A stretch of DNA of 64,000 bases, from positions 12,710,001-12,774,000 of the forward strand of contig OX597837.1 in the NCBI GenBank assembly GCA_951406725.2, written 5' to 3'. Each line of letters begins with the position of its first letter. The first letter of the stretch is position 1. The notes beneath the pieces were generated by a model. The model saw only the letters and a list, made by a program, of their open reading frames with translations, did no database searches and was not told the DNA's origin. The stretch is from Octopus vulgaris (lineage: Eukaryota). Positions 24,326 through 43,602 of this stretch are shown one piece after another. Made by a program: the position numbers and the translations under genes.

Positions 24326-24704
24326 GAGAGAGAGTAAGAGTAACACTATACATAGTAATAATAGTTATAATTGTAATTGAGAAAGAAAAACCCCATAAAA
24401 ATAAATCCAACCTAATAATATACCTGTACATTAATAATGTGCTCTATACAATCGGAACAATAAACTATTAGAATTAATAAGAAATCTACGTAAACATTGA
24501 ATGCAACCATGACCTATTTTAAGACTATGTTTCGCGCCACCTACATCGATAGTACATGTGAACCCTAGATCAATATTCCTGCGAATATTAATTGTAACAC
24601 CCCTACCTCCAACTGAACACCAACAAACGGATATTTTATTAATTTGGTCTAATGAGTCATTTAGTTTACTCCGAAACGATCCAGAGTAAAGGACCCTAAG
24701 TAAA

Positions 24705-24791
24705 GGACCCTGAGGAAACTTCACCGAGCATGTTGCAAGGTTTGCATATCCAACAGCATGCATTCAGTGCAGTTGAAACGCGTGTAGGTCC
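24705..24791 (+). ncRNA. Type I hammerhead ribozyme motif (minimal stem III, long stem II)
   Basis: Stem I GGACC/GGTCC; core CTGAGGA; stem II AACT...AGTT; GAAAC-GCGT-GTA cleavage triplet. Confidence 0.65.
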
Positions 24792-25144
24792 GGAGAATAT
24801 GCTGTAAATAATCTGCTGTAAATAACTTCTAAAAAAAGTTTATGGATGTGAAAAATTTCCATTCTCCTTATTATTATTAATGTTATTAATTATTCTACGG
24901 AATATATGCAGACCTGAACTTGATGCAAGGAATTACCCAGTGATGTCACTTCAAACGAACTTTTGCAGGCATGGTGGGGGGAAATTTTAGTAGTAATTAG
25001 CTGGCAGACTTTGGCTGACGAGTAACAGGCACCTATTTGGCCCAAATTTTGAAACCGGTAATTATAAATAGTTTCACACATTTCGTTTGTTTAAACAGTG
25101 TTTCGTCACTTCAAACGAACTTATGCAGTTAATATTGTATACTC

Positions 25145-40808: not shown

Positions 40809-41104
40809 TATGCGTTTGTGTGTGTGTACTTTTGAAAATCTTTTTTATTAAATGTGAAACCGGTCAATTCAATAAACATCTTTAAAAGACCCTGCATTTT
40901 CAAATCTTCTTCCCTATATATGCATATGTATATATATATAATATGGCAAAGTAATTTATTTTACTAAGCCCTTTTATATAATGTAATATTTTGAATTCGC
41001 CTTAAATGGTCCCTTTACATACTGAATACTTGGTGAAATTGATTAATAATTAATTAATTTTATCCTCAATTGTTGAAAATATATATATATATATATATAT
41101 ATAT

Positions 41105-41425
41105 AAAGGAAATGAAGAAAATGCTGACAAAATAATTTAAGTAAGGGAGAGTGTATTTAATTAGGTGAAGTTCTTTTTACCGGTTGCGCATTTGTTATGC
41201 TTATCAAAAGATATTTTGAGTGAGATAGAGTTCCTTTCTGATGGATTTTTTCTCTTATCTGACAGTCAGATAAGAGAAAAAAATCCATCAGAAAGGAACT
41301 CTATCTCACTCAAAATATCTTTTGATAAGCATAACAAATGCGCAACCGGTAAAAAGAACTTTCACCTAATTAAATACACTCTCCCTTACTTAAATTATTT
41401 TGTCAGCATTTTCTTCATTTCCTTT
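41105..41425. repeat. Near-perfect ~160-bp-arm palindrome with 1-nt centre (41264)
   Basis: ...CTCTTATCTGAC-A-GTCAGATAAGAG...; arms complementary out to AAAGGAAATGAAG / CTTCATTTCCTTT. Confidence 0.92.
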
Positions 41426-41463: not shown

Positions 41464-41550
<87 letters not shown>

Positions 41551-41554
<4 letters not shown>

Positions 41555-42740
41555 GAAATATTAAAATTAGTAAGTCTCTCTAAAAGAGAACAGCGGCAGC
41601 GTTCCCGGAAAATAATAGTTATCGCCATACTAATATGGCATTCTTATAAAAATAAGAATAAAGCTATCCGCTTATTAGCTCCATGAGGCCATCGCCTTAA
41701 GTTAGCTATTTGATACACAAACTGTATCCATATAACCTTCGAACAAGGGAGTCAGTCGCTCCACACTACTTGACCGGCAGCTACAGACGCGTTTCGGGGT
41801 ATTGCCCCTTTTCAATGCAGCGTAGCCAGCCAGTAGGTGTCGCTTCCGACAATCTCTGTTCGATGGTTTTATTTACCTAGTTTCGGTGGAATACATCCAC
41901 TTGTTTTCAATAATAGAAATATTAAAATTACTAAGTCTCTCTAAAAGAGAACAGCGGCAGCGTTCCCGGAAAATAATAGTTATCGCCATACTAATATGGC
42001 ATTCTTATAAAAATAAGAATAAAGCTGTCCGCTTATTAGCTCCATGAGGCCATCGCCTTAAGTTAGCTATTTGATACACAAACTGTATCCATATAACCTT
42101 CGAACAAGGGAGGTCAGTCGCTCCACACTACTTGACCGGCAGCTACAGACGCGTTTCGGGGTATTGCCCCTTTTCAATGCAGCGTAGCCAGCCAGTAGGT
42201 GTCGCTTCCGACAATCTCTGTTCGATGGTTTTATTTACCTAGTTTCGAAGGTTATATGGATACAGTTTGTGTATCAAATAGCTAACTTAAGGCGATGGCC
42301 TCATGGAGCTAATAAGCGGACAGCTTTATTCTTATTTTTATAAGAATGCCATATTAGTATGGCGATAACTATTATTTTCCGGGAACGCTGCCGTGTTCTC
42401 TTTTAGAGAGACTTAGTAATTTTAATATTTCTATTATTGAAAACAAGTGGATGTATTCCACCGAAACTAGGTAAATAAAACCATCGAACAGAGATTGTCG
42501 GAAGCGACACCTACTGGCTGGCTACGCTGCATTGAAAAGGGGCAATACCCCGAAACGCGTCTGTAGCTGCCGGTCAAGTAGTGTGGAGCGACTGACCTCC
42601 CTTGTTCGAAGGTTATATGGATACAGTTTGTGTATCAAATAGCTAACTTAAGGCGATGGCCTCATGGAGCTAATAAGCGGACAGCTTTATTCTTATTTTT
42701 ATAAGAATGCCATATTAGTATGGCGATAACTATTATTTTT
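41551..42740. repeat. 361-bp unit in tandem (41551-41911, 41912-42247), then inverted (42244-42740); each complete unit carries a hammerhead motif
   Basis: Direct comparison of units; inversion junction at a TTCG microhomology. HHR motifs at 41780-41821(-), 42142-42183(-) and 42526-42567(+). Confidence 0.88.
42526..42567 (+). ncRNA. Minimal type I hammerhead ribozyme, U3-A8 variant core
   Basis: Stem I GCTGCA/TGTAGC; core TTGAAAA; stem II GGGG-CAATA-CCCC; GAAAC-GC-GTC. Identical copies on the minus strand at 41780-41821 and 42142-42183. Confidence 0.65.
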
Positions 42741-42743
42741 ATA

Positions 42744-43597
42744 TAAGACAGATATTCCGGAGGCATCGATACAGACGCCTCGTGTATATTTGTCTCTCCC
42801 AGGTTTTTTACTGATGAAGTGTAACCTATGGTAGATTAGCTTAATTTAATTTAATTAAGCTAATTTAATCATTAATGACACAGAAACGATGCATCGTCTA
42901 AAAGATGAATTAGGGTAAATGTTTTTAAATTTTCACCTAATTTCTGAATTACTACTACTTGGCGGTGTGAGTTATGGCTGCTCTTTCTGGTGGACGAATG
43001 GCCTGTTAAGGTCACTCCTAAATTGTTATATTTATATATTTAGTCGTTGACTATTTTCTCTTTTCCACTAGGCCGCTGGTAGCGATAAATTTCTATTGAA
43101 TTTTTTTGCTACCCTAAATTGACTAATTGATAATTTTCTGAATAATTCTGAGATTGAATCGGCAGTTTATATTTACTGCTGATAAGTTTGGCGCGAATAC
43201 GTCAGTCTTGAAAATTTTAAGACAGATATTCCGGAGGCATCGATACAGACGCCTCGTGTATATTTGTCTCTCCCAGGTTTTTTACTGATGAAGTGTAACC
43301 TATGGTAGATTAGCTTAATTTAATTTAATTAAGCTAATTTAATCATTAATGACACAGAAACGATGCATCGTCTAAAAGATGAATTAGGGTAAATGTTTTT
43401 AAATTTTCACCTAATTTCTGAATTACTACTACTTGGCGGTGTGAGTTATGGCTGCTCTTTCTGGTGGACGAATGGCCTGTTAAGGTCACTCCTAAATTGT
43501 TATATTTATATATTTAGTCGTTGACTATTTTCTCTTTTCCACTAGGCCGCTGGTAGCGATAAATTTCTATTGAATTTTTTTTGCTACCCTAAATTGA

Positions 43598-43602
<5 letters not shown>
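42744..43602 (+). repeat. 474-bp head-to-tail unit (x1.8), each copy with a hammerhead motif; diverged inverted partial copy at 43815-43995
   Basis: Units start TAAGACAGATATTCCGGAGG at 42744 and 43218. Confidence 0.9.
42804..42904 (+). ncRNA. Type I hammerhead ribozyme motif (second copy 43278-43378)
   Basis: TTTTTA-CTGATGA-(A)GTGT...ACAC(A)-GAAA-CGATGCATCG-TC|TAAAAG. Palindromic stem III; long AT-rich stem II hairpin; mismatch at the base of stem II. Confidence 0.6.

Follow-up and report, generated by a model that had tools for sequence, protein, structure and literature searches.

A hammerhead-bearing 361-bp repeat of Octopus vulgaris, best read as a non-LTR retrozyme, with a PSE-like site and a LINE at its predicted start

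Metazoan non-LTR retrozymes (LTR, long terminal repeat) are described as low-GC tandem units of 150-450 bp without an open reading frame (ORF), each with a canonical type I hammerhead ribozyme, for which a circular intermediate and mobilisation by Penelope-like elements (PLEs) have been proposed; a mussel family has units of 350-390 bp (PMC7229834; bioRxiv 10.64898/2026.07.22.740005; literature is cited here from the available parts of each source). In this work we analysed a related element of Octopus vulgaris, a unit of 361/362 bp at positions 41549-42739 of a 64,000-nucleotide stretch of contig OX597837.1 (the window). Among known kinds of element, the non-LTR retrozyme fits it best. With a probability of about 0.7, the unit would use its own promoter of the small nuclear RNA (snRNA) type and yield 362-nt monomers which are circularised and copied into (TA)n by PLE proteins, while a long interspersed nuclear element (LINE) settles at its likely start. 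Retrozymes, the U3-A8 hammerhead core, PLE dependence and the snRNA-type promoter of a newt satellite are already known separately. New are a site resembling the proximal sequence element (PSE) of snRNA genes in the unit, the LINE at the predicted start and sister LINEs that occupy base 1 of U1 and U2 or the corresponding site of other retrozymes. The analysis was made on DNA, from which all statements on RNA are inferred.

The octopus unit differs from the retrozymes described so far by the U3-A8 core and by strict (TA)n ends, a tail and inversions that are directly visible; the available text of these two sources mentions neither a PSE-like promoter nor a dedicated LINE parasite of metazoan retrozymes. 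Octopus or cephalopods have no mention in that of PMC7229834, and the preprint covers 35 genomes, none of them molluscan. Neptune-type PLEs and their non-autonomous derivatives (PMC8557442, PMC4209133) share with the unit 5' truncation, partial tandems, an inverted copy, a one-sided tail and a microsatellite bias, and the U3-A8 variant was reported in Schistosoma Cercyon PLEs (PMC4209133). In contrast to them, the unit has no ORF, a tail of ~59 nt instead of 30-40 and a canonical hammerhead, and it has no DNA similarity to the PLEs sampled in the octopus genome. Newt satellite 2 (Coats et al. 1994, as cited in PMC2220036) is also reported as a hammerhead tandem repeat with an snRNA-type promoter for RNA polymerase II (Pol II), whereas the octopus family forms dispersed short arrays in an invertebrate and its promoter is a predicted one.

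For the LINE, the closest systems are Tx1L, Keno, Tx1-Mar, Utopia and SINEU, which insert into transposons or snRNA genes (PMC4494074, PMC4640811). Shared features are the combination of APE endonuclease and reverse transcriptase (RT), an ORF1 with CCHC motif, tandem insertions separated by the target duplication and 5' additions derived from U1 or U2. The octopus LINEs differ by targets that include ribozyme-bearing retrozymes, by insertion always at the predicted start and by switching between close sisters. In the available text of PMC4640811, snRNA genes are listed as targets only for Keno, Utopia and Dada; Keno and Utopia insert at nt 38/39 of U2 and leave it from nt 39 downstream, whereas the octopus LINEs leave U2 and U1 from nt 1. 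R2, R1Bm and SART1 depend on host transcription, as the octopus LINE would, and target sequence downstream in the RNA can assist their priming (PMC4494074, PMC7265360), but the ribozyme trimming the 3' end would here belong to the host repeat and not to the LINE. Our literature search, with Repbase and subscription papers outside its range, found neither LINEs that target retrozymes or base 1 of U1/U2 nor cephalopod retrozymes, and the available main text of the 2026 octopus repeat annotation (PMC13282606) mentions neither ribozyme nor snRNA. The features of the locus are as follows.

41467..41551, unstranded: (TA)n microsatellite joined to the 3' end of the left arm
41549..41608, minus: 59-nt tail (unit positions 1-59), a Penelope-type extension that stops just short of the promoter-like element
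41609..41969, minus: full unit, left arm
41780..41821, minus: type I hammerhead with U3-A8 core, predicted cut after 41786
41831..41847, minus: predicted +1 to +17, LINE target site, empty here
41892..41904, minus: core of the snRNA-promoter-like (PSE-like) element
41970..42247, minus: unit truncated at position 84, hammerhead retained, promoter-like element lost
42142..42183, minus: type I hammerhead, predicted cut after 42148, the next cut lying 362 nt away
42193..42209, minus: second LINE target site, empty here, without promoter-like element upstream
42244..42247, unstranded: junction of the inversion, where two 5'-truncated arms overlap by 4 nt
42244..42378, plus: partial unit (227-361), right arm
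42379..42739, plus: right-arm full unit that runs to the fixed 3' end
42443..42475, plus: PSE-like element at -57, top of 670 positions for the matrix trained on U1/U2
42500..42516, plus: predicted +1 to +17, the 17 bp that the LINE duplicates at other loci, empty here
42511..42581, plus: hammerhead 42526-42567 (predicted cut after 42561) with extended stem I (internal loop, distal helix)
42709..42724, plus: short hairpin just 5' of the unit 3' end, similar in related C-type units; a candidate signal for recognition by the RT
42744..43602, plus: tandem family of 474-bp units, unrelated to the 361-bp element and outside it, which it meets at the right 3' end

Two arms of the unit lie back to back, with 98-100% identity between copies and a period of 361/362 bp, which confirms the tandem and then inverted unit of ~361 bp recognised in the first-pass annotation of this DNA. 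The minus arm (41549-42247) consists of the tail, one full unit and the truncated unit, and the plus arm (42244-42739) of the partial unit followed by a full one; (TA)n flanks the array on the left and a different repeat family on the right. The unit was rightly called non-coding: no ORF for RT plus GIY-YIG endonuclease lies between units at this locus or at the other loci examined, and, as to long coding inserts, none but the LINE was found in a unit. An assembly artefact, which had been named as a danger, is ruled out, because a degenerate motif has 1,508 matches genome-wide (0 for the reversed control) and at least half of the unit's words occur in 20 sequencing runs from 10 studies. None of these runs is recorded as RNA; 14, with contigs only, are just guessed to be RNA.

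The 361-bp unit is a young multicopy family. A search of the 2.8-Gb genome delivered 1,029 candidates, and the 40 that were scored are mostly 98-100% identical; uninterrupted head-to-tail arrays reach 5-6 whole units without an ORF between them (L099, L114). Insertion anatomy was recorded in an unbiased sample, the 18 insertions obtained from the first 30 motif matches on contig C1. Here two fixed positions account for 25 of 30 outward 3' ends, namely unit 352-361 and a tail end at 54-60 (the latter in 13 of the 30); (TA)n adjoins 22 of the 30 outward 3' ends and none of six free 5' ends, and 12 of the 18 insertions are inverted structures. The best-match sample of 22 insertions gave 34 of 36 3' ends at fixed positions, 33 at (TA)n, and 14 inverted structures. 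The 5' truncation points are scattered. The anatomy matches both the description of Penelope-like insertions in PMC8557442 and an autonomous PLE of the octopus genome (L182). In two cases, flanking DNA is duplicated at length around the insertion, inverted in L012 and direct in L140.

Partial tandems, an inverted 5'-truncated copy, a one-sided tail and a microsatellite target are traits of non-autonomous PLEs, whereas short non-coding tandem units, a type I hammerhead in each and high copy number are those of non-LTR retrozymes. We file the unit among the latter because of its copy number, its Penelope-type anatomy and the frequency with which copies pass the cut site. Counted over 88 arms, copies continue across the predicted cut site in 109 cases and end there in 4; for the predicted +1 the figures are 108 and 2. 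Neither site is enriched for 5' ends (4 and 2 of 88; p = 0.14 and 0.58), the stops occurring near the mean rate. By these counts a linear monomer template seems unlikely and a circle would fit; later tandem expansion may be compatible with them as well.

The hammerhead motif is identical in its three places in the window, 41780-41821 and 42142-42183 (minus) and 42526-42567 (plus). It has a 6-bp stem I that extends beyond an internal loop into a distal helix, a 4-bp stem II, a palindromic stem III and a GUC site; core boxes with the 3-8 pair, GAAA, an NUH site and helices I-III are all present. The U3-A8 type I hammerhead proposed earlier, with its stems and GUC site, is borne out by three identical motifs and by covariation, but its designation as minimal has to be dropped. 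According to the definitions in PMC4209133, a 6-bp helix I, a 4-bp helix II and a small palindromic helix III make up the canonical metazoan type I, and the distal extension of helix I and the palindromic loop 3 separate the motif from the minimal PLE type. None of 200 shuffles folds as well as the 76-nt hammerhead region (z = -3.58); taken by itself, the 42-nt core is unexceptional, being equalled by 40 of 200 (z = -0.83). Against Rfam, the window region gave no hammerhead match at E<=10 and the Hammerhead_1 gathering score was not reached, whereas a related C3-G8 unit scored 32.2 bits (E 2e-4), below the gathering score of 34. Rfam matches to microRNAs in the region are due to the perfect hairpin at 41.1-41.4 kb and to (TA)n.

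Core and stems covary across diverged families. The covariation set comprises 28 distinct motifs selected by where they lie behind a LINE end. Position 8 was not constrained, and positions 3/8 are C-G in 15, U-A in 7 and U-G in 6. Pairing occurs in 137 of 168 stem I cells, against a mean of 101 and a maximum of 122 in 2,000 partner shuffles, and in 101 of 112 stem II cells (mean 87.6, max 96). The relatedness of the sequences inflates these results, which is a point against our reading; five motifs mis-parsed at stem III were kept and lower the stem I count. Self-cleavage and circle formation by the window unit are predicted. The released monomer, earlier given as ~361 nt, measures 362 nt between the two minus-strand cut sites. 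For its release from a minus-strand dimer both hammerheads are present, but the monomer would need an outside promoter, because the upstream minus-strand unit has lost the promoter-like element. The supposed dependence of cleavage on the dimer is uncertain, as most invertebrate retrozymes cleave efficiently (PMC7229834).

Since LINEs hit U1 and U2 at +1, upstream regions were compared. A common motif at -56 to -61 is present in 57 of 60 U1/U2 matches, the remaining three being LINE junctions; we call it PSE-like because the vertebrate PSE is placed ~60 bp upstream (PMC4494074). A matrix built from nine non-redundant U1/U2 promoters of the octopus genome alone was applied to the positions before the LINE junction. 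In the window unit (unit A), -57 comes first of 670 with 11.1 bits, the runner-up reaching -1.3 (p = 0.0005 by shuffling); its rank is second in unit B and first in five C units. Only 7 of 127,928 window positions reach the score of unit A, and two of them are the unit's own. The predicted +1, unit position 122, lies 26 nt ahead of the ribozyme, at the spacing from a PSE of an snRNA-type unit. A PSE-like element precedes at least two hammerheads in 6 of the 18 unbiased insertions, though not at the window locus. A rough pattern search for a motif like the 3' box found none in the unit, which is a weak test. Two LINE copies in U2 genes have, after the U2 duplication, a 14-nt head one base off the C-unit start, and a copy inserted elsewhere than in U1 brings U1 nt 1-17 with it; these heads support the +1, because they are expected if LINE RNA begins at the host start site. 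Taken together, the unit is probably transcribed from its own snRNA-type promoter. For the octopus genome in general, loci L278-L337 display the U1/U2 promoter motif together with a conserved downstream motif like the 3' box, with a U1 cluster on contig C18 and U2 clusters on C23, C7 and C3.

A stretch of 5.4 kb between two unit clusters on C7 was taken as a PLE body; this was rejected, as it is an APE-RT LINE. The LINE encodes an ORF1 with a CCHC knuckle and an ORF2 with APE endonuclease, RT and a C-terminal zinc-binding end; together with target duplication and target specificity, this corresponds to the structure of the Tx1 clade. Its closest PDB structure is L1 ORF2p, and the best named homologue comes from Argonauta hians (63%), other homologues being unnamed. 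It would thus be of L1/Tx1 type, the Tx1 label coming from these features and not from a tree. In a search with the 3' end (30 loci), 20 of the 21 closest copies join unit positions 122-138 (17 bp), three of the 20 continuing into another LINE copy, whereas none of nine more distant ends does; in a search with the 5' end (30 loci), all 16 closest full 5' ends are preceded by the same 17 bp. The duplications match the local allele in 12 full-length copies and a truncated one (L031 among them), and 5'-truncated and tandem copies also occur at this site. An unbroken frame of 1,140 codons is found in 9 of the 21 best protein matches.

The LINE insertions are independent of each other, because LINE and host-unit distances are incongruent: the truncated LINE of L104 is 0.1-0.2% from five others and yet its unit is 2.5-2.9% away, and L100 and L101 have identical units with LINEs 1.3% apart. 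That the three target sites of the window are empty is the usual state, because ~21 LINE copies face ~1,500 motifs. None of the LINE copies examined has a poly(A) tail at the 3' junction, which would fit priming on read-through RNA; for R1Bm and SART1, downstream target sequence in the RNA can aid precise priming (PMC7265360). A dense cluster lies at G000:C2:73044600-73068700 (L040, L043, L046, L047, L050, L110), with five LINE copies in two neighbouring units and the 17-bp duplication between them.

Sister LINEs use equivalent sites. A subfamily of 83% identity inserts at the same distance of 9 nt before stem I of the hammerhead unit B (14 of 30 loci). Of another 40 LINE ends picked across the protein ranking, 18-19 lead into hammerhead units C and three run into U2 from its nt 1, the remainder having other repeats as targets; a close sister of the clade targeting A stands at nt 1 of U1. 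Both hammerhead core boxes soon follow the junction in 48 of 100 LINE-end loci. At the U2 insertions, the U2 model is matched from position 1 after the junction, which is not the Keno-type insertion. A tree of 73 of 94 LINE ends (21 shorter than 520 nt were dropped, and 6 more without an ORF2 end; topology alone was used) places the A-targeting clade among U1-type sisters of ~95% identity, although the A target and U1 share no starting sequence. Automatic target labels are wrong for at least L037, L214, L235, L249, L255 and L259, counts of target changes being left unused, and L216 is unclassified as to target.

Further retrozyme families of the same layout are found at L208-L226 (B units) and at L238-L260 and L275 (C units); many B-unit motifs have C at core position 4, a variant core. 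Class D (L344, L345, L350, L263-L268) is a very young LINE subfamily with identical ORF2 ends that targets another repeat. In class E (L347-L349, L269-L273), the insertion lies ~30 nt downstream of a TATA-like box in a multicopy unit without Rfam match. The idea of a PSE at every LINE target had to be given up, class D having no PSE-like element and class E a TATA-like box.

The Penelope context suggested before is supported by the insertion anatomy, but no PLE ORF is joined to the unit in the loci examined. Young elements with RT and GIY-YIG domains (by Pfam) number 6,136 candidates, of which 150 were scored. The commonest, a 781-aa family, ends in (TA)n and has a minimal U3-A8 hammerhead in its pseudo-LTR (pLTR); this U3-A8 core is the only terminal likeness found between the unit and sampled PLEs, since matches to PLE stretches are 19-31 nt of low complexity. 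The young and abundant 781-aa Neptune-like PLE at L172-L178 has a second ORF upstream. Two further spots checked for an autonomous partner (L179, L180) have no ORF.

The proposed cycle would begin with what the insertions display, namely tandem units with fixed 3' ends at (TA)n, a tail and inversions. With the PSE-like element 57 nt upstream, SNAPc and Pol II might start at unit position 122 and read through the array. The first hammerhead is predicted to cut at unit position 183 and to remove a 62-nt leader; the next would release the 362-nt monomer, which a host ligase would close to a circle with stems I and II predicted to remain formed. A Neptune-type RT/GIY-YIG protein may then use a nicked (TA)n to prime near unit position 358 and copy around the circle past one unit. 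Since this would restore the promoter upstream of the start, the problem of an external promoter would be solved. The APE-RT LINE sits at the predicted +1 with its 17-bp duplication, and its sisters sit at equivalent retrozyme sites and at base 1 of U1 and U2; presumably it borrows the host promoter, and its read-through RNA would be trimmed by the downstream hammerhead. Hence a three-layer parasitism of PLE, retrozyme and start-site-targeting LINE is likely.

Several observations weigh against this cycle. Passing the cut site is no proof of a circle, because partial tandems also arise in autonomous PLEs or by unequal crossing-over. Five other positions in the 64-kb window score as high as the PSE-like site of unit A, whose core deviates at two of the first four positions that are invariant in all 57 snRNA genes, so that the promoter may be weak. 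Among 30 GIY-YIG loci and 33 longer PLE stretches, out of the 6,136 candidates, none proved to be an autonomous PLE similar to the unit in its DNA. In Xenopus, only one of nine predicted retrozyme dimers cleaved in vitro (bioRxiv 10.64898/2026.07.22.740005). The eight uncleaved dimers also favour a ribozyme that is weak or idle, with movement through linear uncleaved multimers or expansion at the DNA level; stem III has only 2 bp, and minimal hammerheads of PLEs are poor cleavers (PMC4209133). We regard this as rather unlikely, for core and stems covary across diverged families, 5' ends do not pile up at the predicted start, and mussel and coral retrozymes of the same design cleave and form circles (PMC7229834). 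Alternatively, the unit could be pLTR debris of an autonomous PLE, 5'-truncated copies without an RNA cycle of their own. The identical insertion anatomy (PMC8557442), a U3-A8 core common to the PLE pLTRs of this genome and the resemblance of Xenopus retrozymes to pLTRs (bioRxiv 10.64898/2026.07.22.740005) speak for it. However, arrays of 5-6 whole units without ORF (L099, L114), the LINE as sole long coding insert and the lack of similarity to sampled PLE 3' regions make this origin improbable. That unit and LINE form one composite, or that the LINE mobilises the unit and the shared site reflects hitch-hiking, is very improbable: L105, with a LINE fragment within a Penelope-type inverted structure, indicates that composite RNA may sometimes be copied, but the duplications match the local allele, LINEs that are nearly identical occur in separate unit subfamilies while identical units contain different LINEs, LINE copies are few compared with motifs, and unit ends are unlike LINE ends.

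Regarding the LINE alone, it is quite possible, at somewhat less than even odds, that each subfamily's endonuclease simply reads a short DNA sequence, and that selection for expressed positions has produced the agreement with start sites as a side effect. ATCG opens the U2 as well as the C-type targets, and the Tx1L endonuclease is sequence-specific (PMC1950540). Off-target copies keep the first 3-4 nt of the family target without a promoter; some sequence recognition thus seems to exist, and classes D and E indicate that a PSE is not required, both of which count against the cycle proposed above. On the other hand, the A-targeting clade and its U1-type sisters have targets that start differently, and the presumed specificity loop, whose assignment is inferred, is identical in copies targeting A, U1 and B; loop flexibility may, however, outweigh loop sequence (PMC1950540). 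More tentatively, the lineage could home on start sites instead of any single sequence and take over the host promoter, with hammerhead-trimmed RNA setting the next target. It would land 14-17 nt past +1 of U1, U2, several retrozymes and a TATA-driven repeat, and read-through RNA cut by the host hammerhead ~62 nt past the LINE end would carry sequence that pairs with the nicked site of the next copy.

Other repeats of the window are of similar build. The 474-bp family (42744-43602, plus; 1,761 candidates) has the same anatomy of (TA)n, tail and inversion, and hammerhead-like motifs at 42805-42903 and 43279-43377 in which the core is C3-G8, stem II is branched and very long, and stem III has 4-5 bp; no PSE-like site was scored in its unit. 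A lone hammerhead-like motif with C3-G8 core and long stem II lies at 24702-24794 (plus). The near-perfect 330-bp palindrome at 41095-41424, between (TA)n runs and single in the window, is probably a pair of truncated copies of another element lying back to back.

The available literature leaves open how transcription of animal retrozymes is achieved and what mobilises them. In the octopus family, the scars of Penelope-type insertion are directly visible, a particular promoter and start can be put to the test, and the genome itself provides evidence for a circular template. If start-site homing were true, target choice would be inherited through RNA and could switch without a change of the endonuclease, and snRNA-type promoters would be a general engine of invertebrate retrozymes. 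The LINE lineage marks where U1, U2 and at least three groups of retrozymes start. Its sisters, nearly identical but differing in target, are a natural experiment on target choice and switching, which bears on programmable gene insertion.
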